The translations under genes were made by a program, and so were the position numbers. This document shows, piece by piece, positions 36,300-56,695 of a stretch of DNA of 64,000 nucleotides (its first letter is position 1; every line of letters starts with the position of its first letter). Below the pieces are notes generated by a model that was not told where the DNA came from, did not search any database, and worked only from the letters and a program-made list of their open reading frames with translations. The DNA is from Candidatus Omnitrophota bacterium (GTDB lineage Bacteria; Omnitrophota; Gorgyraeia; JAGLLT01): positions 37,476 through 101,475 of the forward strand of contig DAOVJY010000005.1 in assembly GCA_030632085.1 (NCBI GenBank), given 5' to 3'.

Positions 36300-36961
36300 T
36301 AAAGCGCACGTTTAAAATGGCATTAGGCATCCTGATGCTGCCCGCCTCGTTTTCCTTTGGCGCCAACCTTTTTAAACAAATATCAAATATTTCATCTATT
36401 GGAAACATAGAACATTATTTCTTTTGCGGAATTACCGCGTATGCAATTTTGCACATTGTTTTTTTCAAACCGGTCTATATTTATGTGTTGGGGCACGAGT
36501 CCATGCACGCTTTGGCAACGTGGATATGTGGAGGCAAAGTAACATCGTTTAAGGTGTCGTCTTCCGGGGGAAGCGTTGAGACAACCAAGCCCAATTTTTT
36601 TGTAGCTCTGGCCCCGTATTTATTTCCTTTTTATGCCATTATCGCATCACTTGTTTTTGGCGGGCTTTCTTTGGTGGTTGATATTTCGGCATTTCTCAAC
36701 ATTTTTGTTTTTACGTTAGGCTTTACTCTTATTTTCCATTTAATTATGACTATAGAGATGGTTAAGAAGAAGCAGCAAGACATAGCGGAGACGGGGTATA
36801 TTTTTTCAATTAATTTTATATTCATTTGCAATTTGGTCATATTTGCTTTTATATTGAGCGCGCTTTTCAGTGATGTAAATTTTACAAATTTTATAATGTA
36901 TTCCATCGTGGACACAAAAGAAATTTTTTGCACCACCTTCAACCAGCTTTTTAATTACTAG
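36296..36961 (+). CDS. Polytopic membrane protein with HExxH motif (putative membrane metalloprotease)
   Basis: Multiple TM helices; HESMH within a TM segment. Family not resolved. Confidence 0.35.
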   Translation: MIKRTFKMALGILMLPASFSFGANLFKQISNISSIGNIEHYFFCGITAYAILHIVFFKPVYIYVLGHESMHALATWICGGKVTSFKVSSSGGSVETTKPNFFVALAPYLFPFYAIIASLVFGGLSLVVDISAFLNIFVFTLGFTLIFHLIMTIEMVKKKQQDIAETGYIFSINFIFICNLVIFAFILSALFSDVNFTNFIMYSIVDTKEIFCTTFNQLFNY

Positions 36962-36990
36962 CTTTAATACACCATGTGTTTATTGGCGCA

Positions 36991-37014
36991 TAGCGTAGAG
37001 CGCGTAGCGGATAG
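36991..37014. repeat. Copy of dispersed TAGCGTAGAGCGCGTAGCGGATAG repeat core
   Basis: Shares core with elements at about 17922-17955 (rc), 54697-54724, 56738-56763 and 58590-58629. Confidence 0.5.
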
Positions 37015-37109
37015 AAAAAGCTCTAAAGGGGCCCAAGCGTGCCGATGAAGTATTGGGCAAGGGTTTGTGATGATGTGGCTAATCGGGATTTATATTAAAA
37101 AAGCCAGCA

Positions 37110-37138
37110 TTGACAAAGTGCCACCAACCTTATATAAT
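37110..37138 (+). promoter_or_regulatory. Consensus sigma70-type promoter upstream of tRNA-Ser
   Basis: TTGACA (37110-37115), 17-nt spacer, TATAAT (37133-37138). Confidence 0.55.
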
Positions 37139-37170
37139 AAAACTCCACTTAACTTGATTAATAACATTTG

Positions 37171-37294
37171 AGATCTCACACCCGCCCTTGGCAGGTTCGA
37201 GATCCAATTTGCTTGTTGAAATTACACGTAAAAGATCTCTCGCCCGTCTTTGGCGAGTTCGAGATCCAATTTGCTTGTTGAAATTGTACAAATT
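37171..37294 (+). repeat. Tandem ~60-nt leader repeat (2 units) immediately 5' of tRNA-Ser(UGA)
   Basis: Two units of AGATCTC-N17-GTTCGAGATCCAATTTGCTTGTTGAAATT; the same arrangement precedes the second tRNA-Ser at 56511-56607. Confidence 0.5.
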
Positions 37295-37382
37295 GGAGGA
37301 GTGGCTGAGCGGTTGAAAGCGGCGGTCTTGAAAACCGTTGTGCCGAAAGGTACCGTGGGTTCAAATCCTACCTCCTCCGCCA
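37295..37382 (+). tRNA. tRNA-Ser (anticodon UGA)
   Basis: Cloverleaf by eye: acceptor GGAGGAG/CTCCTCC, 3-bp D-stem, anticodon loop CTTGAAA, long variable arm, T-loop TTCAAAT, ends GCCA. Confidence 0.85.
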
Positions 37383-39053
37383 GTGATACCAATTCGAACC
37401 TTTGCGTTTCTCGTCTAAGAGCGCAAGGGTTTGAATTTTTGTATGGGCGACATAGTACGGCTTGAATTTCTTTTCGCCGCTATGGATAATCTGATAAAAG
37501 TCTGAATCCTCATCAGATATTGGCTCAAGCCGAATTGGCCCAAGAACCTCTTTAAGAGCCAGGCCGGCTGTAACAGTATTCTTATTCAGTGTTTCGCGTA
37601 ATCTCTCAAGTCTTAAGTTAATCCATTCCTTTGCAGGCGCCTTAAAGGTATTCTGCTGCTGAAATTCCAACGAGACAATTTCCTGTTTTAGGCTTTCACT
37701 CCTCTTTTCTGTTTCATTTAGAGCCTGTGATACTGATTTAGAAAAGTTTCCTATTTTAATGTAGTTAAGATAATTTTGTAGTTCAGATAGAAGCTTATCA
37801 AGCCGCGATTTCTTTTTTTTAATCAATTCAGGCACTTCATTCAGGCCGGAAGTAACAAGCTTTTCTACATTTTTATAAACGTAGCTTAAATTTTCAGCGG
37901 TTAATATCTTTTGCTTTAACTCTGAGATAATGGTTTGTTCTATTCTTTTGCGCGGCACAAGAAGGTTATTATTGCAGGTTTTTCTTCTGGCGTTATAGCA
38001 CCCGTAATAACCGCTTCCTTTTCCGCTAATAAGGACGATAGCTCCGCCGCAGATATCACATTTCATTAGCCCTGAAAGTAAGTAATTGGGACTGCCATAC
38101 ACATAACTTCTTTGCTTTGTTTGACTATTTTTTTCATTTTTTCTTATAGGCCATGTTCCCTTGATTTCTACCCATCTTTTTTGAGCCTTTCTCCATGTTT
38201 CCTTGTCAATTATAATTAATTCTTTTTTAAATATAGACAATTGTTCTTCTTTTGGGCGAGGAACCTTTTTTATTCTTCCCGTTATAGGATCTCTGAGATT
38301 TTTGTACTTTCTCCATATCCATAAGCCGGTATACTTTTCATTTTTTAAAATTCTACTTATAGTTGATATGTTCCATCCACCGGGACGCCCTCTTTTAGTT
38401 GGAATCTTATTTTTGTTAAGGTCCCGCGCTATTTTATTTAAACTTTTTCCTTCAATAAAGTTTTTATATATATCGCTAACAACATCAACTTCAGCGGGAT
38501 TTATTTTATGAACCATTCCTTCGTATTTAGGCTGCCCCTTCTTGTTTAGCTTTAATTCACCCGAGGGCTGGGTGTGATAGCCATAAACATGCTCGCCGGT
38601 GCTGAAACCTCTTATTTTTTGCCCCTCTAAGCCGCGCATTGTCTTTTTCTTAAGGTCATCAAGATATAACTCATTCATAAGCCCCCGTATATGAATACCT
38701 AATTTAGAATTTTCATCATCTGTTACAATGCCATCTGAAACAGAGATTATTTTAATTTGAAGGTAGTTAAATTTAAGCACAAGTGTCAACATTTGATGAT
38801 TGCTTCGAGAAAGACGGGATAAGTCATCTACCATAACCGCTTCAAATTCCTTATTTTCAGCAGCTATTTGCAGAGATTGTAATGCGGGACGATTAATAAT
38901 AGAACCTGAAATTGCTTCATCAATATAGATATGTCTATTTTTAACACTCATATCGTTGTCACGCGCGTAATTTTTACAGACTCTAATTTGATCATCAATG
39001 CTCTTTTCACTTTGATTTTCAGAAGAATACCTTGCGTATATTGCTACTTTCAT
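37368..39053 (-). CDS. Large serine recombinase (integrase)
   Basis: N-terminal resolvase catalytic domain ([12 protein letters not shown]), recombinase and zinc-ribbon domains (CDICGG...[10 protein letters not shown]); 3' end overlaps tRNA-Ser by 15 nt. Confidence 0.85.
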
Positions 39054-39122
39054 TTTAACCCCCCTTAATGACTACATGATTTACGAAAATCTTTGATTTT
39101 CTTAAATCGTTTGTAGGAATTA

Positions 39123-39164
39123 ATCCCCCCTGATTTGTTTTGCGGCGCAAAACATGTGGGGGAT
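39123..39164. promoter_or_regulatory. 42-bp imperfect palindrome upstream of the integrase (candidate recombinase site)
   Basis: ATCCCCCC-TGATTTG-TTTTGCG-G-CGCAAAA-CATGT-GGGGGAT: outer and inner arms are reverse complements. Could alternatively be an operator or terminator hairpin. Confidence 0.3.
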
Positions 39165-39566
39165 ATAAATTATATCAATTTGTCAATTTCAGCACCTATC
39201 TTCATTTGAAAAAGTTTCAGGATTTTGTTTGGCTATGCTGATGTATTCATCGGCAATTATAGAAGCCGCAACATCCAATAGTTCTTGAACAGAGAGATTA
39301 TCAGCCCAGCTTAAATTTATTGGTTGAATTGTTGGATTATTTAGCAGTTTTGTTTTCACTAAAAAACCTCTTGATATTAAAAAATCCAGCGTTATAATAG
39401 CATTATAAGGAAAGCAATAAATTAATAGTTATCTAATAATATAATAATAGCATTATATTGATAGTATGTCAATAGAAATCATCAACAATTTTAAGTGCAC
39501 CTAAAAGATTTATATTGATCCTGAAGTCGAAGGCTGAAGGATCTTAGAATCTAAAGTGAGGGGATT

Positions 39567-39761
39567 ATGCTTTCAAAAAACATAAAACAACTAAGAAAGA
39601 AACACAATTTATCTCAGGAACAGCTTGCCCAAAAAGCGGGAATTACTTACAGCACGCTTATTAAAATAGAGTCGGGGGCAAACAAAAATCCTACGCTCGA
39701 AACTCTAAGAAAAATTTCTAATGTTTTTAAAATTAAGATAGATGAGTTGGTTGGGAGGTAG
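39567..39761 (+). CDS. XRE-family HTH transcriptional regulator
   Basis: Cro/CI-type HTH (LSQEQLAQKAGITYSTLIKIESG). Confidence 0.8.
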   Translation: MLSKNIKQLRKKHNLSQEQLAQKAGITYSTLIKIESGANKNPTLETLRKISNVFKIKIDELVGR

Positions 39762-40512
39762 TAATTGGAGAAGGATAGGTATGAGTAATAAAAAATTATA
39801 TTCAAACGCTATTCGGAACTGGCCAGAGGAGGACCGGCCCCGAGAAAAGTTGCTCAAATACGGAGAACATACGTTGAGCAATGCGGAATTAATAGCCATT
39901 CTTATCAGAATAGGCACACCGGGCAAAAGTGCTGTTGATATTGCTCGGGAATTATTACAAAAATTTAAAACACTGCGTTCCTTAAGCAGTATGGATATTA
40001 CAGAATTCAGACAAATAACCGGATTAAAAGACGCTAAGATCACTCAGATAAAAGCAGCAGTCGAATTAGGAAGAAGATTGATGAGCGAAGAAAAGGCCTT
40101 TATCGGCACTGTAAAAAAATCGTCCGATGTGGCTCATTTTCTTATGCCGCTTATGCGGGATTTAAAAAGAGAGTGTTTTAAACTCTTATTGCTGGATAAA
40201 AGGAACAGCATCACCAATATCCTTGATATTGAAAAAGGCTCTGTTGATAAAGTAAGTCCATCAATACGTGAAATACTTCATGTCGCCATAAAATTTCAGG
40301 CTCCAGGGCTTATCATTGTTCATAATCATCCGTCCGGCGACATTGAACCAAGTGATGCGGACAAATCCTTAACCCGTGCATTAGTTATCGCTGCTTCATC
40401 AATGGAATTGCGCGTATTCGATCACATCATTGTTGGAGAAAATCAACATTTCAGCTTTACTGATAAGGGATTAATAGAAGAATATGAAATGCTGGCAGTA
40501 AGTAAAATATAA
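39742..40512 (+). CDS. radC: RadC-like JAB/MPN domain protein
   Basis: HhH N-terminal region; JAMM motif HNHPSGD; probable true start at ATG 39781 (MSNKKLY) with RBS. Confidence 0.85.
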   Translation: MSWLGGSNWRRIGMSNKKLYSNAIRNWPEEDRPREKLLKYGEHTLSNAELIAILIRIGTPGKSAVDIARELLQKFKTLRSLSSMDITEFRQITGLKDAKITQIKAAVELGRRLMSEEKAFIGTVKKSSDVAHFLMPLMRDLKRECFKLLLLDKRNSITNILDIEKGSVDKVSPSIREILHVAIKFQAPGLIIVHNHPSGDIEPSDADKSLTRALVIAASSMELRVFDHIIVGENQHFSFTDKGLIEEYEMLAVSKI

Positions 40513-40527
40513 GAGGAGGGGCCAACC

Positions 40528-42582
40528 GTGACAAAATTATCAAAAAGGGACCGTAAAAGAATCAGCGAACTATTGCGGGCTGGCGAAGGAATCCCTCTTG
40601 ATTACAAAAATATTCTTTTCCCTCCGGAAAAGAGAGAATACGAGTTAGTCTATGCCGGCAAAGAAAGGGAAGAAGATATCCTTGCTGATACTATGGCCGT
40701 TCCTCTTCAAGCAGTGAAAACTTTTGGAAAAAACGGTAAGGGTTGGACAAATAAACTTATCTTTGGTGATAACCTCCAGATTATGAAAAAGCTACTCGAC
40801 GATCCAGAGGTAAATGGCCGAGTAAAACTGATCTATATTGACCCCCCGTTTGCTACGAAACAAGAGTTTCGGGGAAGCCAGGATCAAAAAGCATATCAGG
40901 ATAAAATCGCAGGGGCAGCGTTTATTGAGTTTTTAAGAAAACGGCTCATTTCTCTTAGAGAATTGTTAAGTAAAGATGGTGCAATTTTTGTTCATCTCGA
41001 TTACCGCAAAAAACATTATATAAAAGCAATAATGGATGAAGTATTTGGAGAAAACAATTTTAGAAATGAAATTGCTGTAAATAGAGTGAAAAAGAATGTC
41101 AGAGAAAGAGAACTCGTGAAAAAGCTAAACGAGGAGTTTGATACAATCTTATTCTATTCAAAAAATGCATCATTGTTGATTTTGCCTCCAGATAAAGAAG
41201 ATTATAAGCCTGATAGGTGGCATGCTTTTGATGCCGCAGGTTTTAGAAATGGAATGGATTACGAAATATTTGGTTTTAAGCCAGCAACAACCAGACATTG
41301 GCATTGGACAAAAGAAAAAGCCTATGAAGCAAAGAAAAATTATGAGGTGTGGAAAAGCACGCTTTCAAGCAAAATGACTCTTGGAGAATATTGGGTTAAA
41401 ATGGGGCAAAAACTTAGATTTGTTAGGCCAAGTCAAAATACGAGGAAGCCAGAATATTTTATTCCGGCTACTGAACAAACTCTTTGCAATAATTTGTGGA
41501 ATGATTTATCAGCATACTCTTTTCAGCATAGTTACCCGACAGAAAAAAACGAAAAACTTCTTAAACGAATTATAAATATGGCTACATCAAAGGGGGATAT
41601 CGTACTTGATGCTTTTGCCGGTTCTGGTACGACGTGTGTAGTTGCGGAAAAGTTAGGCTGCCGTTGGATTGGTATTGATTGCGGCAAGCTGGCGATTTAC
41701 ACTATCCAGAAAAGAATGCTTAACTTGAAATCTGAAATCGGCAATAAAGGAAAAAAATTAAATCCCAAACCGTTTACGCTTTATAATGCCGGTCTTTATG
41801 ATTTTCCAAAGTTAAAAAAACTTCCCTGGCAGGATTGGCGCATCTTTGCCTTACATCTTTTTAATTGCCACGACGATAAACATACCGTCTCAGGCATTGA
41901 GCTTGATGGTTACAAAGGAAGGACAGATGTTCTTGTTTTTAATCATCAGCAAGACGGCGGCGTGATTCTTGACTATGGTTTTATTGATGATTTACATTCC
42001 ATGCTTGGCTCAAAAACAGGTAAACAATTTTTTATTATCGTGCCGGCGGCCAGTGTGACATTCTTGGAAGACTACATTGATAGGGGCAATACTCGTTACT
42101 ATGTTCTGCGTATACCGTATTCCATAATAAACGAATTGCATAATCGTGCCTTTGAAGCCATAAAACAGCCTATTGATGAAACCCAGGTCAACGATACCGT
42201 TGACGCCGTGGGTTTTGATTTCATCCGGCAGCCAAAGGTAGAATGCGAATATTTTACTAAAGATGATACTGCCACCATCAAAATAAAAACTTTTAAAAGC
42301 GAGGCAATGACCAAAGGAGTGAGCATTCTTAGCAATAGAGAATCTCTTTCTATGGTAATGGTAGATTTCAATTATGCTGGTGAAATTTTTAATTTAAAAA
42401 AAGTGTATTACGCCAGTGAGATAGAAAAAAATAAGTGGGGAATTCATCTCCCTGTTGAATCAATTAAGAGCCAGCTTATGATCATTTATCTGGATATCTA
42501 TGGCAATGAATACCGCGAGATTAAAACATTAAAAGATTTTAAACCCTTTGAGAATAGGAAAAAAGTAAAAGGGAGAAAATAG
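40528..42582 (+). CDS. Type III restriction-modification Mod-like DNA methyltransferase (N6-adenine/N4-cytosine, beta class)
   Basis: GTG start with RBS; catalytic DPPF (LIYIDPPFAT) precedes AdoMet motif FAGSGTT. Confidence 0.8.
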   Translation: MTKLSKRDRKRISELLRAGEGIPLDYKNILFPPEKREYELVYAGKEREEDILADTMAVPLQAVKTFGKNGKGWTNKLIFGDNLQIMKKLLDDPEVNGRVKLIYIDPPFATKQEFRGSQDQKAYQDKIAGAAFIEFLRKRLISLRELLSKDGAIFVHLDYRKKHYIKAIMDEVFGENNFRNEIAVNRVKKNVRERELVKKLNEEFDTILFYSKNASLLILPPDKEDYKPDRWHAFDAAGFRNGMDYEIFGFKPATTRHWHWTKEKAYEAKKNYEVWKSTLSSKMTLGEYWVKMGQKLRFVRPSQNTRKPEYFIPATEQTLCNNLWNDLSAYSFQHSYPTEKNEKLLKRIINMATSKGDIVLDAFAGSGTTCVVAEKLGCRWIGIDCGKLAIYTIQKRMLNLKSEIGNKGKKLNPKPFTLYNAGLYDFPKLKKLPWQDWRIFALHLFNCHDDKHTVSGIELDGYKGRTDVLVFNHQQDGGVILDYGFIDDLHSMLGSKTGKQFFIIVPAASVTFLEDYIDRGNTRYYVLRIPYSIINELHNRAFEAIKQPIDETQVNDTVDAVGFDFIRQPKVECEYFTKDDTATIKIKTFKSEAMTKGVSILSNRESLSMVMVDFNYAGEIFNLKKVYYASEIEKNKWGIHLPVESIKSQLMIIYLDIYGNEYREIKTLKDFKPFENRKKVKGRK

Positions 42583-42583
42583 C

Positions 42584-45118
42584 GTGCCGGATCAAAAACG
42601 ATTTCTTAACCAGGATTTAGTGTTAAGGGTTACTGAAAACATTAATCTTTCTGTATTTGATATTAATAAGTATGAGGGTTTCATTGATGCTCTATGCGGT
42701 GATCGCGACTATCAGAAAGAAGCTATCCGAGCAACCCTTCGCTATCTACTCGGTGATCAATACCGCAATCTTTCCGCCCTTGCGGAAGAAAATCTAAAGT
42801 CTAATATAATCTTGCAAGATTTATATGGCTCATTTAATGAAATGAAAAAACACCTCCAGTTTTCCAATAAGCTTTCCTGTTCTCTGGACATGGCCACCGG
42901 CACCGGAAAAAGCTATGTAATCTACGCTATTGCGCGCATTATGCTGGCTGAAGGTGTTGTGGATCACGTTCTTGTGGTGTGTCCTTCCACCACCATAGAA
43001 ACAGGTCTTATGGAAAAATTTAGACTGCTTTCTGGTGATGCGACATTACGAGATCTTCTTCCAGACAACTCTATCATTAAAAATCCCCACATTATCAATG
43101 CCACCGAAAGCATAGCGACCGGTGCAATCTGCGTGGAAAACTGCCATGCTCTTTATGAACATGTAAAATCATCCATCCGCGAAAGCCTTGCCGGAAAAGG
43201 AGAGCGTACACTTATCGTTAATGATGAAACACACCATGTATACAATCAAACCGGGAAAGATTTCAAAAAATGGAAAGAATTTATCCTGGAGAAAGAGTTT
43301 AATTTCAAATACATCGTGGGACTTTCTGGAACTTGTTATATCAATGATGAATATTTTACTGATGTCATCAGTCGTTATTCTCTTAAGGAGGCTATCGAAC
43401 AAGGCTTTATAAAAACAATTGATTATGTTGCTCAAGATACATCTACTACCCAGAATGAAAAATTTCAAAAAATATATGACAACCACATTGAAAACAAAAA
43501 CACCAAATACCGCTTAATAAAGCCTCTTACCATTTTAATCACAAAAGACATCCGCGCCTGCAACAAACTTGCCGAAGATTTAATAAAGTTCCTTTCAAAA
43601 AAAGAAGGCATTTCCGTAGACGATGCTTCTCAGAAAGTATTAGAAGTAACTTCTTCGCCAAAACACAAAGAAAATGTTTGTAAACTTACAGAAGTAGACA
43701 GAAAAAATTGTCCTATAGAGTGGATTGCCTCAGTAAGTATGTTAACCGAAGGTTGGGATGTAAAAAATGTTTTTCAAATCGTTCCTCATGAAGAACGCGC
43801 TTTTAATAGTAAACTTCTTATTGCTCAAGTACTAGGACGGGGCTTAAGGATTCCGGAAGTGTATCTTGGCCAAAGACCGGTGGTTACCGTATTTAATCAT
43901 GATCGCTGGTCTAGCAGGATAAAGCACCTTGTTGATGAAGTGCTCGAAATAGAAAATAGAATCTACTCCTATCCCGTAAAAAAAAGACCTGACTACAACT
44001 TTTATATCCACCAGATTGATTATGCCCGTTTAAAAGAAACCGAAGAATACAAACAAGAAAAGGAATACGAATTTAAAAAAGGGTTTATCACCTTCATCAG
44101 GCAAGCCCCAGCGCTTGAACGAGAAACAGAATATATTCGCGTAACCACACAAGAAATCAGAAAAAAGAAGACGCTTGTCACATACAAAATGTTCTCCATA
44201 GAAGAAATTGCCGAACAGATATATAATCGTTTTAGATCAATCGATATGGAAACGGCCGTGTCAGATATGCCCACTAACTATACAAACAAATACAGCATCG
44301 ACTGGTTGAAAGTCCTCATTAAGAAATCTTTGGAACGTATCGGCGAGAAAGGTAGCCAGGTCAGCGATGAAAACAGGCAAAGGATATACCAGGCATTTGG
44401 CGTTCTTCATCGATCGGCCGCCAAAGCCGTCCGTTATAAAATGTCCCCAAAGGCCTTGGTTAAAATTAAAACGCAGGGGCGAAAAAAGTGCAGTGCTGGT
44501 TTTGCGTCCTTAAGGCGCGGCGACGCTACTATCTTCTGGGACGATAATTCAAAAAACCTGTGCGCAGAAGAAGACATAAATTTTATAAAAGAACTCAAAA
44601 CTCAAAAAGACGAACTTCCTGGCAGCGCAATGCAATATGTATCAAATGCCTACCATTTCAAAACCCCTTTAGGCATTGCAATCGCCAGCCATAAACCAGA
44701 ACGCCTTTTTATCCGCGGACTTGTCAAGGAGGAAAACGCCAAAATAATTGACAGCTGGATCAAATCAACCGATCAAGAATTCTATCCTATTGATTATTCA
44801 TGGAGAAAAGGAGAGCATCCTAAACGTGCACGTTTCAATCCGGATTTTTTTATTAAAGTTGGCAAGTCCATCCTTGTGGCAGAAATAAAAGGCGATGAAG
44901 AAATCAAAGATCCTTCTGATGAAAACAAAGCAAAATATAAAGCAGCTAAAAGGCACTTTGCTATCTTGAACAAGCAACAATCAGAGTTCAACTATTTTTT
45001 TAATTTCTTAACTCCCGACGATTACGACTACTATTTCAATCACCTGCGTAAAAAAAACTTTACATTTAACTCAAAACTCGATGCAGAACTTGATAAAAAT
45101 GGTAATGGCAAAAAATAA
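42584..45118 (+). CDS. Type III restriction enzyme Res subunit (SF2 helicase-nuclease)
   Basis: Walker A MATGTGKS, DEAH-like NDETHH, helicase C-terminal motifs; directly follows mod with 1-nt gap. Confidence 0.8.
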   Translation: MPDQKRFLNQDLVLRVTENINLSVFDINKYEGFIDALCGDRDYQKEAIRATLRYLLGDQYRNLSALAEENLKSNIILQDLYGSFNEMKKHLQFSNKLSCSLDMATGTGKSYVIYAIARIMLAEGVVDHVLVVCPSTTIETGLMEKFRLLSGDATLRDLLPDNSIIKNPHIINATESIATGAICVENCHALYEHVKSSIRESLAGKGERTLIVNDETHHVYNQTGKDFKKWKEFILEKEFNFKYIVGLSGTCYINDEYFTDVISRYSLKEAIEQGFIKTIDYVAQDTSTTQNEKFQKIYDNHIENKNTKYRLIKPLTILITKDIRACNKLAEDLIKFLSKKEGISVDDASQKVLEVTSSPKHKENVCKLTEVDRKNCPIEWIASVSMLTEGWDVKNVFQIVPHEERAFNSKLLIAQVLGRGLRIPEVYLGQRPVVTVFNHDRWSSRIKHLVDEVLEIENRIYSYPVKKRPDYNFYIHQIDYARLKETEEYKQEKEYEFKKGFITFIRQAPALERETEYIRVTTQEIRKKKTLVTYKMFSIEEIAEQIYNRFRSIDMETAVSDMPTNYTNKYSIDWLKVLIKKSLERIGEKGSQVSDENRQRIYQAFGVLHRSAAKAVRYKMSPKALVKIKTQGRKKCSAGFASLRRGDATIFWDDNSKNLCAEEDINFIKELKTQKDELPGSAMQYVSNAYHFKTPLGIAIASHKPERLFIRGLVKEENAKIIDSWIKSTDQEFYPIDYSWRKGEHPKRARFNPDFFIKVGKSILVAEIKGDEEIKDPSDENKAKYKAAKRHFAILNKQQSEFNYFFNFLTPDDYDYYFNHLRKKNFTFNSKLDAELDKNGNGKK

Positions 45119-45252
45119 CCTGAAGGGAAAAAGGGGGAAATGGGAACAGGCCTAATTAATATTGCTAAAATAATTGACAGGAATTTTAGAAAACAGTAGC
45201 CTTGGTAAAAAAAGTAATTATTGTGTCCCCGGATTCTGCAACGAACCTTTAA

Positions 45253-46518
45253 ATGGTGCGGTTTAATATGACAAAAAAGTTGGTGCAAAGACAATTTACT
45301 GTTGTTGACCTTTTTGCGGGAGCAGGAGGATTGCTTGAGGGATTCAGGAGGAAAGGGTTCAATATAATTTCTTCTGTCGAAATGAATTCCCATGCCTGCG
45401 ATACGCTCAAGACCAGACATACTTATTGGGATTATAAGGTAAAGAAAAAGCAAAGCGCATATTGGGATTATGTGCAGAAAAAAATCACCAGAGAAGTATT
45501 CCTGAATGGTTTGCCGGAAAACGCAGTTATAAATGTAGAGATTTCTCCCAAAACTATAAATGAGATTTCTCGACGGATTAGAGAGCAAATGAAGGAGATG
45601 AATGTATCTTCTATTGATGTTTTTATCGGAGGTCCTCCCTGTCAGGCATATTCCCTTGTAGGGAGAGCGCGAGACCCCAAAAGCATGAAGGATGACCCAA
45701 GAAAACAGCTATATAAGCACTATGTTCAATTACTGAAAAAGTTCATGCCTGAAGTCTTTGTGTTCGAGAACGTGCCGGGAATACTTTCAGCTGATGGTGG
45801 CGCATTATTTGAAGAGGTAAAGAAATATTTTGGAAAAGCAGGATACGTTGTTGAGCACAAAAAGCTGATTGCTTCTGACTTTATGGTTCTTGAGAACAGA
45901 AAAAGGGTTATATTAATTGGCTGGAAAAAGGATCGTGATCTGAAATATCCAGAGTTTAAACCCAAAAAACATGATTATCTTACAGCAGAATTATTTAAGG
46001 ATTTACCTCCACTAAACCCCGGAGAGGGTAGTGATGTTTCAGAGTACGTTAATAACGTATCAGATTATCTGAAGAAATCAAAAATTAGACATATAGAGCC
46101 CGTGCTTACGCACCACGTGACGAGGCCAATTAATGATAATGACAGAGAGATTTATAAAGAAGCTCTTGTTTTGTGGGAAACAGAAGGGAAAAGGCTTAAT
46201 TACGCTGATCTGCCAGAGAAACTAAAAACACATAAAAACCAGGCTTCGTTTCTTGACAGATTCAAAGTAGTAGCCGCTAATGAAGCAGCATCACACACAG
46301 TTGTTGCACACATCGCAAAAGACGGACACTATTATATACATCCAGACATCAAACAGCTAAGGTCAATAAGCGTCCGAGAAGCAGCACGAATACAGTCTTT
46401 TCCAGATAACTACTTTTTTGAGGGTCCGAGAACTGCAAAACTTGCCCAGATAGGAAATGCAGTGCCACCGCTTATGGCAGAAGCTATTGCTGGTAAGATA
46501 AAGGAGATGTTGAAATGA
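45253..46518 (+). CDS. dcm: DNA (cytosine-5)-methyltransferase
   Basis: Motif I FAGAGG, motif IV GGPPCQAYS, motif VI ENV, motif X QIGNAVPP. Confidence 0.9.
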   Translation: MVRFNMTKKLVQRQFTVVDLFAGAGGLLEGFRRKGFNIISSVEMNSHACDTLKTRHTYWDYKVKKKQSAYWDYVQKKITREVFLNGLPENAVINVEISPKTINEISRRIREQMKEMNVSSIDVFIGGPPCQAYSLVGRARDPKSMKDDPRKQLYKHYVQLLKKFMPEVFVFENVPGILSADGGALFEEVKKYFGKAGYVVEHKKLIASDFMVLENRKRVILIGWKKDRDLKYPEFKPKKHDYLTAELFKDLPPLNPGEGSDVSEYVNNVSDYLKKSKIRHIEPVLTHHVTRPINDNDREIYKEALVLWETEGKRLNYADLPEKLKTHKNQASFLDRFKVVAANEAASHTVVAHIAKDGHYYIHPDIKQLRSISVREAARIQSFPDNYFFEGPRTAKLAQIGNAVPPLMAEAIAGKIKEMLK

Positions 46519-48629
46519 AGGGAAATAAATTTCGGACACGTGCCAGACTTATTCAACAATTAGGTCTTCAGTTAATCAAGAATGAGGGTATTGCGCTTTT
46601 GGAATTAGTTAAAAATTCTTATGATGCAGATGCTTCATTTTGTACAGTAGAAATGAATAAGGTTAATATTCCTCAAAAGGGTTCTATTGTTATTACAGAT
46701 GATGGAGAGGGGATGGATGACGATATTTTACGCTCTGCCTGGCTTGAGATTGGGACAAGTCACAAAGAAGAATTAGCCTCTAATCCGGAAACCAAACGTA
46801 CAGACAAATTCAAGAGATTACGTTTAGGAGAAAAGGGAATTGGGAGACTTGGAGTTCATAGATTAGGGAAGTTTATAAAAATTATTACTAAAAGGGGCGA
46901 ATATGAATATGTTCTCGAAATTGATTGGGACAAATTTGAGCAAAAAAAATATATAGAAGATGTTGAGATTGTTATAAAAAGGCGTACTCCTGAAATCTTT
47001 GAGAAAAAAGAATCAGGGACAAAGATCATTATTACTAAATTACGAATTGCTTGGACACGAAAAAGAGTGCGTGAGTGTTGTAGGGCAATCACTTCTTTAA
47101 ATTCCCCTTTTCAGGACAAAACATCATTCAAGGCAACTCTTAATATTGATAATAAAGATTGGATAAAGGGATTGCTTGATTTTAATAATATTAAAAAATA
47201 TAAACTTTTTGAGTTTTCAATATGCATGGAAAAAAATGAGATAACAGAATTCAATTATAAATTTATTCCGTGGAGTACAATGCCTAAGTTAAAAGTGAGG
47301 CATATTACCAAGGATAACAAAGAAATAAAGTCTGTGCTGAGAATGGTATATAAAGATAAGGAAACTAGAGAATATCAAGATATAGATTTGTCAAAGCATA
47401 AAATTGGTCCAGTTCAATTTAAAGGTGTGATCTTTGATAGAGATGCGCGTGTTTTAGAATTGGGAGTTCAAGATAAAAGCGGTTTAAAGAAATATTTAGA
47501 TGCAAATGGGGGTATTAGGGTTTTTAGAGACAATATGCGCGTACTGGATTATGGTGAGCCAGGGAATGATTGGCTTGACTTGGGCGGAAGACGTGTTAAT
47601 GTTCCAACAAAAAGAATAAGTAATAACATTATAATTGGGGGAGTTTTTCTCAATCGTGCTAAAAGTAGTGACCTTAAAGAAAAAGCTAACAGAGAAGGGT
47701 TCCTTGAAGATGATGCTTATGATGAACTTGTTAAAGCAGTCCTCTATGCAATAGATAAGCTTGAAACATTCAGAAAGACAGATAAAGATTTATTAAGAAA
47801 ATATTATGGCCCTCAAAAAAATATTGAGCCAGTAATCACATCAATTGCAGAGCTAAAAGATATTGTTGAAAAAAATGTTAAAGAGAAAAATGTCCAGAAT
47901 ACGATCAATGTATACCTTGACCGTATAGAGCAGGATTATGAACGAATTACTGAAAGCTTAATTAAAAGTGCCGGAGCTGGATTAAATCTTATCGTTGTGA
48001 TACATCAGATAGAGAAAATAATTAAAGATATTAAAGCTGCACTTAAAAGTAAGGCGGTTAATAAAAGTATTTTGGGAAGAGTTGAAGATCTTGCTTCTCT
48101 TGTCGAAGGATATAGTATTCTCATAAAAAATTCTGAAAAAAAAGAGCGCAACTTAAAAGGTATAATAAATCAGTCATTATTTAATACAAAATTTCGCTTT
48201 GAAGCGCATGGCATAAATGTTAGGAAAGAATATGAGTCAAAAAGAAAGGGATTTGATGCTATTTGTTCGGAAGGACACGTTTTGAATGCCCTGATGAATC
48301 TTTTTGATAATTCTATATGGTGGCTGGGATATTCAAAAACTAAAAATCCAGAAATTTATATCGATGTTTCTGATGCAGTGCCTGGGGGCTATGTAAGCAT
48401 TATTATTGCAGATAATGGCCCGGGTTTCTCAATGCCGGTAGAAGAGCTTACGAAACCATTTGTGAGTAATAAGCCGGGAGGTATGGGAATAGGACTTCAC
48501 CTTACAAATGAAATCATGAAGTCTCTAAAAGGAAGATTGGTTTTTGATGTGGAGGAGTATTTTGATATACCGTCTAAATATAAAAATGGTGCAGTAATCG
48601 CTCTGGCATTTAAGAAAGAGGAGAAATGA
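46515..48629 (+). CDS. Dual Bergerat-fold ATPase: N-terminal MutL/MORC-type GHKL domain and C-terminal histidine-kinase-type HATPase_c domain
   Basis: N-terminal ELVKNSYDADA, DDGEGM, GEKGIGRLG; C-terminal NALMNLFDNS, IADNGPGF, GGMGIGLHL. ATGA start-stop overlap with dcm. Confidence 0.6.
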   Translation: MKGNKFRTRARLIQQLGLQLIKNEGIALLELVKNSYDADASFCTVEMNKVNIPQKGSIVITDDGEGMDDDILRSAWLEIGTSHKEELASNPETKRTDKFKRLRLGEKGIGRLGVHRLGKFIKIITKRGEYEYVLEIDWDKFEQKKYIEDVEIVIKRRTPEIFEKKESGTKIIITKLRIAWTRKRVRECCRAITSLNSPFQDKTSFKATLNIDNKDWIKGLLDFNNIKKYKLFEFSICMEKNEITEFNYKFIPWSTMPKLKVRHITKDNKEIKSVLRMVYKDKETREYQDIDLSKHKIGPVQFKGVIFDRDARVLELGVQDKSGLKKYLDANGGIRVFRDNMRVLDYGEPGNDWLDLGGRRVNVPTKRISNNIIIGGVFLNRAKSSDLKEKANREGFLEDDAYDELVKAVLYAIDKLETFRKTDKDLLRKYYGPQKNIEPVITSIAELKDIVEKNVKEKNVQNTINVYLDRIEQDYERITESLIKSAGAGLNLIVVIHQIEKIIKDIKAALKSKAVNKSILGRVEDLASLVEGYSILIKNSEKKERNLKGIINQSLFNTKFRFEAHGINVRKEYESKRKGFDAICSEGHVLNALMNLFDNSIWWLGYSKTKNPEIYIDVSDAVPGGYVSIIIADNGPGFSMPVEELTKPFVSNKPGGMGIGLHLTNEIMKSLKGRLVFDVEEYFDIPSKYKNGAVIALAFKKEEK

Positions 48630-49918
48630 TGCAGTTATCTAAAAATGGGAAAGTTGTGATTGTCGATAATGTTTTTACAGAAGCTAAACCTTTACTTGAT
48701 GTTTTAAATATGAACCAAATCCCCTATTTATATTTTGATGGTAAGGTTGATTCTTTACCTGAAACTCCTTGCAAAGGGATTAGATTTGTTTTTCTTGATA
48801 TAGCTTTGGAAGGAATGGATGGCGCAGATACAAAAACAAAAGCTTCAGCAATCGTAGGGATATTAGAAAAAATTATTTCGAAGGATAATGGTCCTTATGC
48901 GATTATTTTCTGGACAAAACATCCCGAAGTTATTGAAAGAACTCTTAAAAACTGTCAAATAAGGGGAATAAAGCCTGTAATTTCACTTGATCTAGATAAA
49001 TCAGAATGTAAAGAAGGTGAGACGTACTCTCTTAAGGCGATTTTAGAAAAATTAAAAACAAAGGCAGAAAAATTGGGTCCATATAGTTTATATATAATGT
49101 GGGAAAATATAGCTGCTGATTCAGGGACTGAATTTATTAACAGTTTTGCTAACATCTTTGAATTTGATGATAACTGGAGTGAAAACACAAGGCATCTTTT
49201 TTATCGTCTATATAAGGCTTATACTGAAAAAAATGAGGTTTCAGATGATAAAGACAAGATATTGTGCGTTCTGCAACTCATTAATCGAAGCTTTAAGGAT
49301 TTGCTAGATAATAATACTGTTAACTGTAGAGAAAAATTAAATTTATTTGAATTCCCATCGACTCCTACTGACGAAGAAGAAAAGAGGACTTTTTCCCAGA
49401 AAATCAATGAAATAATTTCCGATGAAATAATCGCTAAAATAAATAATAGTCTTTTTATTATTGATAATCCTGATTTCTCGCAATTATCCACAGTTGTTTT
49501 TAAATATGCTGACGAAGAATTGAAAAATATTTTTTTGGATAAATGTTTTGAAAAGATTTCAGAAGTAGCTAAAGCATCTGCCCAACTTTGTCGTCTTGTG
49601 ATAACACCTCAATGTGATATATGTCAAGATAAAGCCATATTGCATAGAGTCCTGTATGGAATTATTTTCAACGAAGATGATGCCACTAAATGTAGAAAAG
49701 GGCCGTTATTTCCTTTTGGTCCCTTTTATTTCCATGATAGTTCCAAGTCGATAGTTTTTCACTTGCAATCAATAACTACTTGTAAGAAAGATGAATTGTG
49801 TTCTAAAGAGGTGTTATTTGGACTACGAAAAGATTTATTTTTTGATATACAGGCCAATTCTGCAAATCATGTTAACCGACATGGTAATTTTGCAATAAAA
49901 AAGCAATTTAAAATATAA
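48626..49918 (+). CDS. Uncharacterised protein with receiver (CheY)-like N-terminal domain and unknown Cys-rich C-terminal domain
   Basis: VVIVDN...RFVFLDIALEG...IIFWTKHPE resembles REC beta1/beta3/beta4 elements (inference); ATGA overlap with upstream ATPase gene. Confidence 0.35.
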   Translation: MMQLSKNGKVVIVDNVFTEAKPLLDVLNMNQIPYLYFDGKVDSLPETPCKGIRFVFLDIALEGMDGADTKTKASAIVGILEKIISKDNGPYAIIFWTKHPEVIERTLKNCQIRGIKPVISLDLDKSECKEGETYSLKAILEKLKTKAEKLGPYSLYIMWENIAADSGTEFINSFANIFEFDDNWSENTRHLFYRLYKAYTEKNEVSDDKDKILCVLQLINRSFKDLLDNNTVNCREKLNLFEFPSTPTDEEEKRTFSQKINEIISDEIIAKINNSLFIIDNPDFSQLSTVVFKYADEELKNIFLDKCFEKISEVAKASAQLCRLVITPQCDICQDKAILHRVLYGIIFNEDDATKCRKGPLFPFGPFYFHDSSKSIVFHLQSITTCKKDELCSKEVLFGLRKDLFFDIQANSANHVNRHGNFAIKKQFKI

Positions 49919-49919
49919 C

Positions 49920-50093
49920 GTGGTTATTGTGCATGTATTCAACTTTGAAAATAGTGTCAGAAATAAATTATTTTTATGGTTTAAGAAAAATGCACGTTCA
50001 TTTCCATGGCGAACTATTAAAGACCCCTATCGTTTGATGGTTGCCGAGTTCATAAAAAAAGGGGTCAGAGTCATTTTTCATTCTGGTAGATAA
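49920..50093 (+). pseudogene. N-terminal fragment of a MutY/Nth-family (HhH-GPD) DNA glycosylase
   Basis: Translation ...LFLWFKKNARSFPWRTIKDPYRLMVAEFI then degenerates and stops; matches N-terminal signature of MutY/Mig-type glycosylases. Not in ORF track. Confidence 0.35.
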
Positions 50094-50495
50094 ATGTTGT
50101 ATCGCCAGATTTTCGCATGTTCCCAGATTTATTGGGATGTGTCCCTATTAAAATGGAGATAGGGGGCGATTCTATTTTAAAATAGTATGTGTTTTGATAA
50201 AAATTAATTTAAAAGAAGTGTAGAATCAGAGGGGACACAATACTAATTTTAGTAATAAAACAGAAGGCAAATAATAAATAGGTATCGTGTCACCAGATTT
50301 TTAGAAAATACATAATTGTTAGGAAGAATTTCCGCAAAACAACTTTGTCGATAAAATATTTTTCCAAAAAGCCAAGTATTTATTCTTTATATTAAAACGA
50401 CTTATCAAGCAAAAGCTAGCTTCAAATTCACATAATGTCTGATTATAGGATCCTGAGGTTCTTATTTATATTTTGTTTCCCTTTATCTAACTCCG

Positions 50496-52355
50496 TTGTA
50501 TAATAAAAAGAAAAATGGAGGAAAAATGTATATAAAACGAATCGTTATAAAGAATTACCGAAATTTAAAAGATATAGACCTTTCCTTTGGCGCAGGGTTA
50601 ACTTGTATTGTAGGTGAAAACAATTCTGGAAAAAGTAATTTTTTACATGCAATACGGTTGGCCTTAGACATGAATCTGCCGTATTATGTTAGACAGTTAA
50701 CAGAAGATGATTTCGCCAAAGAAGTAGACTTCAGCGTGCCACAACAGATTGTGGTAGGAGTACAATTTACGGATTTTTTTTCAGGTGCAGATGACGATAA
50801 GGTAAAGGAGCACGCTCTAGCGCAAGAGTGGGGTTTGGACGGGGAAACAGCACAAGTATGTTATCGGTTTAGACCTAAAGGTTCAGTGCGTAGGAATATA
50901 GCTTCTGGTGAGCGTGAACCAAAAAATTTAACCATAGAGGATTATGATTCAGAACTAGTAGCTGGGCCGATAGTTTGTGAAGACGGAGGCACAAAAGATT
51001 TGTCAGAGGTTTGTTGGGACGATGATTTTTCAACAGCTGTAAAATTTAATAGGCTATCAACGTATCGAGTAGCATTTTTACAACCTATTCGAGATGTTGA
51101 AGATGATCTGCGCCGACAAGCACGCTCCCCATTGTATAAGCTGATAAAAGTATCGGATATGTCTGATGAAAAGAAAAAAGAACTAATAAAAAAGATAGAT
51201 GATGTAAATAAAGAGATATCATCTGAAGCGGAAATCCAACAAATTGCTCAAGACATAGATGATTCCTTCAGTGCAGCGGTAGGCTCTATATTTAAAATGA
51301 ATACAAAGATAGGCATGATGTCGCCAACCTTTAGAGACATCACCCGCTCTTTAAAAATTTTACTGTCCGGACAGGGGCTGGAAGAGGCGAATATTTCTAG
51401 AAATGGGTTAGGGTTAAATAATATTTTATACATGAGTATGTTGTTGGAATATTACAAGAAACAAGGGGAGCAAGAAGATACCGCTGGCGAATTATTGTTG
51501 ATTGAAGAACCAGAGGCGCATCTACATCCCCAACTGCAAAGAGTCTTGCTGGGAAGATTAGAAAACAAAGAATGTCAAATAATCACGACCAGTCATAGTA
51601 CGCATATTACTTCACGTGTGGATTTAAATGAAGTGATAGTTTTTACGCGAAATACGGAGTATGAGATATCAGCTAAAAGATTGAGTGATAACAATTGGTC
51701 GTCTGATAACGATAAGGATGATTTGGAGAGATATATAGATGCTACAAAATCAGTTTTGTTATTTGCTAAAAAGGTTATTCTGGTAGAGGGAATGGCAGAA
51801 GTTTTCCTGATTCCTTTTTTAGTGAAAAAGATCAAAGAAATAGATCTAGAAGAGCATGGCATATCAATAGTTCCCATTCACGGCGTTCATTTTTCTTCAT
51901 ACTTAAAACTTTTTGGAAATGAAGCTATAAAAAAGAAATGTGCAGTTATAACCGACGGGGATCTAAGGCCTAGCGATTCATTTAATTCGGAAGAGGGGGA
52001 TTTCCCAAGAGTAGATTCTTTGAGAGATTTTGAAAATGACTTTGTAAGGATATTTCATTGTGGAACAACATTTGAAATAGAAACCGCATCTCCCAGCAAT
52101 TTAAAGATGTTCGCAAGTTCAGCTAATGAGCTAGGAGCGCCGCGAGTGGCGAAAGATCTAATGGAAAGCTATAAAAAGAAAAGTGAATTATCTGCGAAAG
52201 AAAAACTAGAAATGAGTAAAAAAGTTTTGAACACCGCAAAAAGGTTTGGTAAGGCACGATATGCACAGATATCATCACGGTATTCACAGTATGCCGAAGA
52301 ATTACCGACATATTTAGATAATGCAATTGATTGGTTGATAGATGAAGCTGACTAG
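50496..52355 (+). CDS. gajA: OLD-family ATP-dependent nuclease (GajA-like: ABC-type ATPase + Toprim)
   Basis: Walker A GENNSGKSN, Walker B LLLIEEPEAHLHP, Toprim residues VILVEGMAE and ITDGD; probable true start ATG 50526 with GGAGG RBS. Confidence 0.8.
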   Translation: MYNKKKNGGKMYIKRIVIKNYRNLKDIDLSFGAGLTCIVGENNSGKSNFLHAIRLALDMNLPYYVRQLTEDDFAKEVDFSVPQQIVVGVQFTDFFSGADDDKVKEHALAQEWGLDGETAQVCYRFRPKGSVRRNIASGEREPKNLTIEDYDSELVAGPIVCEDGGTKDLSEVCWDDDFSTAVKFNRLSTYRVAFLQPIRDVEDDLRRQARSPLYKLIKVSDMSDEKKKELIKKIDDVNKEISSEAEIQQIAQDIDDSFSAAVGSIFKMNTKIGMMSPTFRDITRSLKILLSGQGLEEANISRNGLGLNNILYMSMLLEYYKKQGEQEDTAGELLLIEEPEAHLHPQLQRVLLGRLENKECQIITTSHSTHITSRVDLNEVIVFTRNTEYEISAKRLSDNNWSSDNDKDDLERYIDATKSVLLFAKKVILVEGMAEVFLIPFLVKKIKEIDLEEHGISIVPIHGVHFSSYLKLFGNEAIKKKCAVITDGDLRPSDSFNSEEGDFPRVDSLRDFENDFVRIFHCGTTFEIETASPSNLKMFASSANELGAPRVAKDLMESYKKKSELSAKEKLEMSKKVLNTAKRFGKARYAQISSRYSQYAEELPTYLDNAIDWLIDEAD

Positions 52356-54114: not shown

Positions 54115-54262
54115 TTATACCCACACAATAAAAACTTGTATATAGAGAGATAATGAGGAAAAAATCTATTTTCCTTGATTTTCTATTCGTATTTATTATA
54201 TATAACCGTCTCTTTTGTTCTCAAAGTGATGATACTAAGAATTCCAGAAGCACAATATCTAA

Positions 54263-54466
54263 CTAACCAACAACATTTTTTTTAACATAAATTTCAAAGA
54301 TACCGTTTCTTAGCCTTGTCCCATGTATTTTTGACTTCGGGATCCAGATTTTCATGCCGTTATCTACCAATATAGCTTTATCAGTCTCATGTAAGATGCG
54401 GACTTGAATCCAGATGTATTTTTCGTCAGGGTATAATAGTCTATAAATGTTGAATGGCCGGGGCAT
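54263..54466 (-). CDS. Small hypothetical protein
   Basis: 67-aa ORF directly downstream of the HTH ORF on the same strand; no recognisable motif. Confidence 0.2.
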   Translation of the reverse strand: MPRPFNIYRLLYPDEKYIWIQVRILHETDKAILVDNGMKIWIPKSKIHGTRLRNGIFEIYVKKNVVG

Positions 54467-54470
54467 AGGG

Positions 54471-54668
54471 TTATCTCCTTTTAAATTGACAGGCTTTTTT
54501 GGCAGTATTCTTGCCTATTTTTAAAGCTTTGGCTATTTGCTTGTAAGTCATTCCCAGTAAATGCAATTCACTTGCTTTTTGGGCTAATTTTTGGTATAAA
54601 TAGATTCGTTGGGCGGGTTGAATCTTGATATGAGCCGATATTTCAGCAATAGTTCGAATTGGTTGCAA
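54471..54668 (-). CDS. Small HTH protein, possibly a transposase N-terminal fragment
   Basis: HTH-like LGMTYKQIAKALKIGKNTAKK; only 65 aa, at the distal edge of the island. Confidence 0.25.
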   Translation of the reverse strand: MQPIRTIAEISAHIKIQPAQRIYLYQKLAQKASELHLLGMTYKQIAKALKIGKNTAKKACQFKRR

Positions 54669-54696
54669 CCGCGTCCGCCATTATAGCAAAGAGCCC

Positions 54697-54855: not shown

Positions 54856-55308
54856 TTGATGAAGCAGTTTTTTAAATGTGCGATAGGCGCAAGTGTGGTT
54901 TTATTTATGTTAATTTCCGGGGTATGTGCCCAAGATCAAAACCCGATTGCGATTTTCTACGGCGGCTTAGCTGATATTATTCAAGAAAACATGAATTCAC
55001 CGCAGCAATGTGTTGCTGAAGCTGAGAGTTTTATTGATGTTAATATCGGCCCTCTCCAGAGAGCTATGCAGCGGGGCGCGCAGATGTCTCGATCCGACAG
55101 CCACAAGCAAATGGATGAAAGTCAATTCCAAGCCTCTCTGGAACAAATGGGCAAGTTGATGTCCCAAGACGGCGGAATACAAGCCATGAATAGGTATGTG
55201 GACGCCATTACTATTTTTGGAGACAAGTACCCTGAGTACGCAGAACAAATTATGATTAAACTAAACAGCCATAGCCAAGAACAATTTCAGGGATTTAAGG
55301 ATTATTAG
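54856..55308 (+). CDS. Secreted hypothetical protein
   Basis: Signal peptide MMKQFFKCAIGASVVLFMLISGVCA; Gln/Met-rich; no family recognised. Confidence 0.4.
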   Translation: MMKQFFKCAIGASVVLFMLISGVCAQDQNPIAIFYGGLADIIQENMNSPQQCVAEAESFIDVNIGPLQRAMQRGAQMSRSDSHKQMDESQFQASLEQMGKLMSQDGGIQAMNRYVDAITIFGDKYPEYAEQIMIKLNSHSQEQFQGFKDY

Positions 55309-56607: not shown

Positions 56608-56695
56608 GGAGAGATGGCAGAGCGGTTGAATGCGGCGCATTCGAAATGCGTTGTGCCGAAAGGTACCGGGGGTTCGAATCCTCCTCTCTCCGCCA
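56608..56695 (+). tRNA. tRNA-Ser (anticodon CGA)
   Basis: Acceptor GGAGAGA/TCTCTCC, anticodon loop TTCGAAA, long variable arm, T-loop TTCGAAT, ends GCCA. Confidence 0.85.

Follow-up and report, generated by a model that had tools for sequence, protein, structure and literature searches.

The attachment sites of classical large serine recombinases (LSRs), such as those of phiC31 and Bxb1, have only the central dinucleotide in common and usually lie in protein-coding genes. Many phage LSRs have their attP sites adjoining the integrase gene (int). Structured intergenic sequences of other kinds include the Correia elements of Neisseria, which are miniature inverted-repeat transposable elements (MITEs) that remodel expression, and the repetitive extragenic palindromic (REP) elements of Proteobacteria. 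The two REP super-families are defined by a GTAG or CGTC tag at the hairpin end, and REP elements have been reported also in the Planctomycetes-Verrucomicrobia-Chlamydiae superphylum (PMC3733652). The locus described here is a 42-bp imperfect palindrome, ATCCCCCCTGATTTGTTTTGCG/GCGCAAAACATGTGGGGGAT, situated between an LSR gene and a small open reading frame (ORF) in a 64-kb stretch of DNA of Candidatus Omnitrophota bacterium (contig DAOVJY010000005.1, positions 37,476 to 101,475; the whole stretch is called the window). It occupies 39123..39164 (minus strand), exactly where the initial annotation had placed it as a candidate recombination site of the serine integrase. Taken jointly, three statements are probably correct: the palindrome is not a recombination site of this integrase; it belongs to a two-hairpin element that landed, in this lineage only, in the stop/start overlap joining the small gene to the LSR gene; and this element is an intergenic hairpin repeat that is structured, dispersed and in places amplified in tandem, with REP/MITE-like behaviour and without an Rfam entry.

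The palindrome, designated hairpin 1 (hp1), is the sequence-conserved hairpin of the inserted element. Its minus-strand RNA forms a two-tier stem of seven outer C:G-rich pairs, an asymmetric internal loop, eight inner pairs and a 3-nucleotide (nt) loop, with a folding energy of -19.7 kcal/mol (z = -3.85; equalled by 0 of 200 shuffles), and the plus strand folds similarly. Hairpins of the TCCCCC..GGGGGA outline of hp1 are expected by chance 0.05 times per 64-kb window. An 11-codon ORF within hp1 was considered and dropped, its frame being broken by a 1-nt indel in one of the homologous copies (L021).

Hairpin 1 is part of a lineage-specific insertion of about 137 nt (39067..39203, minus strand) between the small ORF and the integrase, composed of a 5' partial arm-like segment, hp1, the linker TTAATTC, a second hairpin (hp2; 39072..39116, minus strand) and TCATT. 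Hairpin 2 is A+T-rich, and its structure is kept between copies while its sequence varies. Six distinct related loci were read as DNA: L001, with the same tRNA-Ser site and 92% nucleotide identity over int; L002 and L005, both at a tmRNA (transfer-messenger RNA) site; L014, with a related module; L027, whose XRE protein is identical to that of the window; and L035, a free form. Among the loci compared, only the window has the extra 136-137 nt (39067-39203), lying between ...TTTTCAAAT and AAGGGGGGTTAAAATG; the insertion appears as a 136-column gap against L001, L002 and L005 and is missing from L027 and L014 too. The stop codon of the small ORF overlaps the integrase ATG (as ATGA) in five of the six relatives and lies a few nucleotides ahead of it in L005, and all six have the integrase Shine-Dalgarno sequence, AAAGGAGG or AAAGGGGG, within the final part of the small ORF. 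The Shine-Dalgarno counterpart in the window is AAGGGGGG (39059..39066, minus strand), 5 nt ahead of the ATG (39051-39053). The compact stop/start arrangement is common to branches of the family that are far apart, which makes the insertion the derived state. The insertion supplies the last five codons of the small ORF (39189-39203; four sense codons and the stop), by which the tail NKGGLK is replaced with EDRC. A different insert of about 190 nt occupies the same junction in a further locus (L033, 4190-4392) and carries eight iteron-like GATWAACACWGAT repeats about 21 nt apart; the junction is therefore a recurrent landing place.

Copies of the element were found in other genomes by a degenerate hairpin pattern scan of one genome per species, which returned six places. 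Homology extending beyond the pattern was present in L009 and L012, both from one Planctomycetia metagenome-assembled genome (MAG), and in L010 from a Planctomycetales MAG, and L021, obtained from a metagenome scan, has the same sequence as L009. The matches L018/L019 are weaker than these homologous copies, and generic CCCCC/GGGGG hairpins from the pattern scans (L008, L011, L013, L015-L017, L020 and L022-L026) were set aside as showing no evident relation. No copy was detected in IMG/VR viral contigs scanned for the hairpin. Over about 55 nt, hp1 of the window is nearly identical to that of L009/L021 and L012, and the asymmetric internal loop is part of this match. In the minus-strand sense of the window the copies have in common also about 20 nt of 5' flank, the linker TTAATTC and a structurally equivalent hp2 of other sequence, and they end in TCATTAAGGRGG, with an ATG 5-8 nt further on.

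A covariance model (R1) was built from four copies, L010 3761-3907 among them. The whole window insertion matches it with 144.5 bits and the model-building copy L010 3761-3907 with 101 bits, followed by L012 4314-4456 (51.7 bits), which has a probable FMN riboswitch on one side and the ribBA start on the other, and by the weaker L010 668-827 (23.8 bits), whose hp2 is almost identical to that of L021. Across six copies 92.4% of cells are paired, versus 82.2% in shuffles, and 13 pairs have compensatory changes, versus 5.4 (neither value reached by any of 500 shuffles), in a test that has only six sequences and is biased towards the structure by their alignment to the model. Slid controls gave 34-55% paired cells (maximum 54.5%). 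Compensatory changes in hp2 affect 8 of the 12 pairs across the six copies. The genes downstream of the copies are unrelated, encoding the LSR in the window, a 62-amino acid (aa) membrane protein in L009, and an approximately 208-aa membrane protein and RibBA in L012; L010 3761-3907 lies between convergent or divergent genes and has no convincing ORF after it. A search of Rfam at E <= 1 gave no match in 38900-39700, and over 36900-39700 the tRNA was the only hit apart from two weak matches, below the threshold, that overlap it. In the ribBA leader of L012 (3985-4432), 3.3 tandem 49-nt hairpins resembling hp1 come after the probable FMN riboswitch, and an hp2 stands between them and the start codon. 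The repeat has here colonised a riboswitch-controlled leader.

The element resembles REP elements, bacterial interspersed mosaic elements (BIMEs) and REP doublets forming hairpins (REPINs) in several respects. It includes a short, sequence-conserved imperfect palindrome, it is extragenic or intercistronic, and it occurs singly or in tandem clusters. Several copies per genome are present in Planctomycetia MAGs (L009, two L012 sites and the tandem array, and two L010 sites), close relatives differ in its presence, and an effect on intercistronic mRNA structure is expected. It differs from REP elements in that hp1 starts with ATCCCCC and has no GTAG or CGTC tag; hp2 of the window is bracketed by CTAC...GTAG, which is not kept in L012 or L021. 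It differs also in being a fixed pair of unlike hairpins that is oriented towards, and ends at, a Shine-Dalgarno sequence, and in having one copy in the 64-kb window; no RAYT gene (for a Y1 HUH transposase) was seen in the sequence available, which fell short of whole genomes. Like a Correia-type MITE, the element is a non-coding insertion of about 100-150 nt with structured RNA, located directly upstream of diverse genes, that may carry promoter-like sequences, but neither terminal inverted repeats nor a clear target-site duplication was found. Since the defining tag and the terminal inverted repeats are lacking, the palindrome is not assigned to the REP/BIME or MITE families.

Besides the bias of the covariation test, several observations weigh against the interpretation as an inserted dispersed repeat. 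Neither terminal inverted repeats nor a clear target-site duplication was found, and no transposase associated with the element; the sole resemblance between the flanks of the insertion consists of two Shine-Dalgarno-like, AAGG-rich stretches (AAGATAGG and AAGGGGGG), which could represent a decayed duplication of the target AAAGGGGG. The single pointer to mobility is the insertion polymorphism, from which the element would appear to move. The window has one copy and the multi-copy status is seen only in the Planctomycetia MAGs, and the effects proposed below for integrase expression are all inferred. Finally, the clear copies are all co-oriented and directly upstream of a gene, a pattern that fits a cis-regulatory leader as well. 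The two-hairpin unit would then be no selfish repeat but a regulatory RNA of the 5' untranslated region that switches translation or mRNA stability and was acquired here by recombination; the CCCCC arm of hp1 would be able to pair either with its own GGGGGG arm or with a downstream GGGGGG/GGAGG Shine-Dalgarno sequence. This explanation is favoured by the position of the clear copies, which carry a conserved TCATTAAGGRGG and stop 5-8 nt short of a start codon, by the covariation of hp2, by the complementarity of the 5' arm to the Shine-Dalgarno sequence, and by the conservation of hp1 with its internal loop between the window and the Planctomycetia MAGs, which suggests specific recognition. It is nevertheless unlikely, because the downstream genes have no common function, no Rfam match was obtained at E <= 1, and the minimum-free-energy fold leaves hp1 closed and the Shine-Dalgarno sequence unpaired. 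Repeat-like behaviour is seen moreover in the copy downstream of the probable FMN riboswitch, which has a tandem amplification of hp1 units ahead of it, and in L010 3761-3907 with no convincing ORF after it.

Two other functions of the palindrome were considered. An intrinsic terminator or attenuator of the small-ORF transcript, with the integrase then read from its own promoter, would agree with the stable G+C-rich stem that starts 25 nt past the small-ORF stop and with the extended -10-like TGATATAAT just upstream of the stem. This is very unlikely, since the stem is followed by UUAAUUCCUAC on the minus strand and by AUAUAAAUUA on the plus strand, neither of which is a U-tract, a promoter/terminator scan did not report the hairpin, and the homologous copies are in 5' leaders and not at 3' gene ends. 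The proposal of the initial annotation, an att-type site (attP-like or secondary) recognised by the adjacent serine integrase, drew on the arm-centre-arm layout of about 42 bp beside the integrase gene, and it is considered refuted. The palindrome lies 1.7 kb inside the integrated element, between element genes that are syntenic in relatives, and not at a junction; it is missing from all six related loci with the same module (L001, L002, L005, L014, L027 and the free-form L035). Its half-sites have no match within 3 mismatches anywhere in the 64-kb window, no related half-site is present at either junction, and its local alignment to both island junctions is within the range of shuffles. A lack of matching half-sites elsewhere was the very outcome that the initial annotation had named as refuting its proposal. 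Neither the palindrome arms nor the complete insert nor the tRNA 3' end recurs in the window. Elsewhere the same sequence precedes membrane-protein genes and ribBA, with no recombinase in the stretches examined. The palindrome is centred on a single base (in the 3-nt loop) and not on a dinucleotide, and the real attP, which was located elsewhere, is unrelated to it in sequence. The inserted dispersed repeat is thus the preferred interpretation of the palindrome, and the finding as first posed is an ordinary one: an inserted repeat and a conserved hypothetical gene.

The attachment sites of the integrase were located at both ends of an island of about 17.3 kb (37383-54673). Its integration target is a tRNA-Ser(TGA) gene (37295..37382, plus strand), whose last nucleotides, CGCCA, follow the predicted TC crossover and are supplied by the element. 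The core of the tRNA-side junction (37376..37405) comprises a 7-bp identity block TCCGCCA (37376-37382), GTGAT and the arm ACCAATTCGAACCTTTGC (37388-37405). That of the far junction (54646..54680) comprises the arm GCAATAGTTCGAATTGGT (54646-54663), TGCAACCGCG and TCCGCCA (54674-54680), the last being the displaced original 3' end of the tRNA. The arms ACCAATTCGAACCTTTGC and GCAATAGTTCGAATTGGT are inverted repeats, the alignment of which ties with the best of 100 shuffles and does not exceed it; the pairing gains its significance from the symmetry of attP and from the existence of a natural attP. The reconstructed attP of 58 bp, GCAATAGTTCGAATTGGT-TGCAACCGCG-TCCGCCA-GTGAT-ACCAATTCGAACCTTTGC, is dyad-symmetric at 42 of 58 positions about the TC that opens the identity block, and rejoining of the chromosomal sides yields an intact tRNA-Ser. 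The same junctions as in the window are found in L001, and in L002, a tmRNA-site relative, the same outer arm stands beside TGGTGGA, the 3' end of tmRNA. An alternative crossover point, a TG situated 1-3 nt beyond the tRNA, was dropped in favour of the 7-bp TCCGCCA block, given the attP symmetry and the attP of L035. No tRNA is present on the contig L035, where XRE is accompanied by a small ORF that overlaps the start of int. The attP of this contig is contiguous (GGTTCGAATTGGT-TGCAC-TGGCGGA-CGCAGTTGCA-ATCAATTCGAACC; 5440-5500) and lies inside the ORF of a 625-aa integrase.

The integrated, truncated form of the LSR (37368..39053, minus strand; 561 aa) overlaps tRNA-Ser by its last 15 nt. Its domains are, in order, Resolvase PF00239 (1.3e-26), Recombinase PF07508 (3.8e-22) and Zn_ribbon_recom PF13408 (4.9e-09), and it matches the PHROG 95 integrase at 1.5e-82. 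Across the reconstructed attP the integrase ORF stays open (...NWYHWR followed by TRLQPIRT...) and runs in frame into a stranded 3' segment at the far end of the island (54471..54673, minus strand), giving a 626-aa protein with a 65-residue C-terminal helix-turn-helix (HTH) tail, for which weak HTH_7 and Sigma70_r4_2 matches were obtained. Proteins spanning the junction occur in several clusters (P0163-P0167 and P0169), and the full-length integrases P0261 (625 aa; the protein of L035) and P0343 (671 aa) cover 100% of the fused query. Because such proteins and the L035 attP exist, the in-frame fusion is not an artefact of reconstruction. Integration accordingly truncates an integrase of 625-626 aa to 561 aa and strands its C-terminal HTH at the far end of the island. 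The stranded segment is followed by a conserved 67-aa ORF (54263-54466, minus strand).

The junctions place the recombination by this integrase at the tRNA-Ser(TGA) 3' end, with attP inside the integrase ORF. A 2014 paper stated that serine integrases were not known to target tRNA genes (PMC4383910). By its domains the enzyme is a standard LSR, and its unusual features are the tRNA-Ser/tmRNA targets and the attP within its own ORF. The real attP is like those of phiC31 and Bxb1 in its length of about 58 bp, its symmetry, its inverted outer arms and its central TC, whereas its location within the int ORF and the 7 bp that it has in common with the tRNA or tmRNA 3' end set it apart from classical LSR sites. 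An attP inside coding sequence is known from the SSV1-type archaeal tyrosine integrases and from the integration-dependent immunity of mycobacteriophages BPs and Brujita. As in those systems, integration alters the C-terminus of an element-encoded protein. The difference is that the present enzyme is a serine recombinase, from which only the last ~65 codons (HTH) are detached, leaving the catalytic, recombinase and zinc-ribbon domains intact.

The small ORF proposed in the initial annotation is real, with the GTG start, AAGAGG ribosome-binding site and translation given there, but its coordinates are 39189..39359 (minus strand; 56 aa) and not 39187-39357. It had been called unannotated, and an identical 56-aa protein (P0001), from an NCBI-sourced contig of 107.7 kb, is in fact already on record, without a name. 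The ribosome-binding site (39367..39372, minus strand) lies 7 nt upstream of the GTG and is conserved in L001, L027 and L014. Twelve close homologues have 63-77% identity, and the one with a named source is from Omnitrophica. A profile search of 1.84 billion representatives, with clusters at 50% identity, yielded 263 clusters when the threshold was E <= 0.001 and 104 when it was E <= 1e-10; every one of them consists of small proteins. The family has the motif L.W.DNPSVQ.LLDVV.SIIA.EYI..AK.N..VF, and since the tails are variable, the altered tail in the window is probably tolerated. No match was found in Pfam, PHROGs, NCBIfam, PADLOC or PDB sequences, and no relative in IMG/VR viral contigs; the element family is therefore absent from the IMG/VR viruses. 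The AlphaFold model (AF2, single chain) has one long helix, residues 24-45, with a mean pLDDT of 72, and a Foldseek comparison of this model with the PDB returned only meaningless matches (E > 6).

Synteny of XRE, small ORF and LSR was seen in every locus examined, including that of the divergent member P0045, and in P0130 the small-ORF protein runs into the LSR N-terminus. The small ORF is a true gene, conserved widely as a partner of this LSR clade and normally coupled to it in translation. The stop/start coupling suggests that the small protein is a stoichiometric partner of the integrase. Two metagenome proteins, P0083 and P0098, join the small-ORF protein without a break to the final ~35 residues of the integrase, and they resemble what deletion would leave of a decayed island beside the tRNA.

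Among excisionases, lambda Xis and Tn916 Xis are encoded just upstream of int, and recombination directionality factors (RDFs) of LSRs include gp47 of Bxb1 and gp3 of phiC31. The RDFs of LSRs act by protein-protein contact. The initial annotation had suggested that the small ORF could be such a factor or a small regulator. Its linkage to int and its conservation are in keeping with this, while the homology and structure searches identify it as neither; a role as directionality factor or regulator is plausible, and analogy with xis-int operons and with LSR RDFs makes a function like that of an RDF or a chaperone the best guess. The points of resemblance to RDF/Xis proteins are the small size (~57 aa), the one long helix, the co-transcription with int and the translational coupling in relatives, and the lack of a recognisable DNA-binding domain is as expected for LSR RDFs. 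In contrast, the small protein has no sequence or fold similarity to a known RDF or Xis, and it would be made whenever the integrase is, whereas most LSR systems regulate the RDF separately.

The insertion probably uncouples and re-tunes the expression of the integrase. It would end the translational coupling, or hand-over of ribosomes, from the small ORF and leave the integrase reliant on its own Shine-Dalgarno sequence AAGGGGGG, which is unpaired in the minimum-free-energy fold with hp1 closed. The transcript would acquire a new intercistronic leader of 135 nt with the stable stem-loop of hp1 and a second hairpin, and these stem-loops may serve as determinants of mRNA processing or stability, as REP elements do. 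Just 5' of hp1 there is a perfect match to the extended -10 consensus, TGATATAAT (39169..39177, minus strand), a possible new integrase promoter that might permit transcription escaping the XRE-controlled promoter. It is given low weight because the motif is not conserved in the Planctomycetia copies. The promoter scan, which requires a -35 hexamer, did not flag it. Integrase expression would become independent of that of the small protein, and would probably be lower or differently regulated.

For the mining of serine integrases together with their sites, the locus implies that proximity and dyad symmetry are not enough to call an att site. It points to an uncharacterised structured repeat, common to an Omnitrophota-type genome and Planctomycetia MAGs, that inserts at ribosome-binding sites. 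A candidate new class of RDF is offered by the small-protein family, which is large, unannotated and obligately tied to one LSR clade. The mapped LSR/att pair targets and restores conserved tRNA-Ser/tmRNA 3' ends and is associated with swappable defence cargo, and tRNA-targeting serine integrases with sites of about 58 bp would be attractive tools of genome engineering, since attB is present in many genomes. As a tentative and rather improbable extension, directionality in this clade, which targets tRNA-Ser and tmRNA 3' ends, might follow an undescribed logic in which it is set by the integrase isoform that the DNA topology permits, the free form of 625-626 aa having the HTH and the integrated form of 561 aa being without it; the coupled small helical protein would be a co-factor, and the hairpin insertion a natural uncoupling mutant.

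The small ORF-integrase operon has a strong match to a sigma-70-like promoter, TTGACA-17-TATTAT with TG (39444..39472, minus strand), in a region conserved in L001, L002 and L033. Two ATAATAGCATTATA copies (39394-39407 and 39444-39457), conserved in the same three loci, are probably XRE operators. Both contain the dyad ATAATAGCATTAT, 50 bp apart, and one overlaps the -10 of the operon promoter. The divergent gene for a 64-aa XRE-family HTH protein (39567..39761, plus strand) adjoins the small ORF in every locus examined. The cargo of the island (39742-54114) comprises RadC, a type III Mod/Res system, a DrmMII-like C5 methylase with a HATPase protein, a 430-aa ORF of unknown function and Gabija GajA/GajB. 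The layout is that of a defence island with a small ORF-integrase operon that would be under repressor control. Relatives with the same integrase module carry other cargo (other restriction-modification systems, and SIR2/DUF87, PLD and AAA_15 genes).

Just upstream of tRNA-Ser(TGA), two tandem repeats of about 62 nt (37165-37290) with the T-arm-like GGTTCGAGATCC have no counterpart in L001, which is collinear in other respects, and could be remnants of tRNA fragments or stem from duplication of a promoter. Beyond the far end of the island, the window has, relative to L001, an extra 150-aa ORF (54856-55308) between the far junction and genes for an HMGL-like protein and an aldolase. A second tRNA-Ser gene (CGA; 56608-56695, corresponding to L001 1553-1640) follows these genes about 2 kb past the end of the island.

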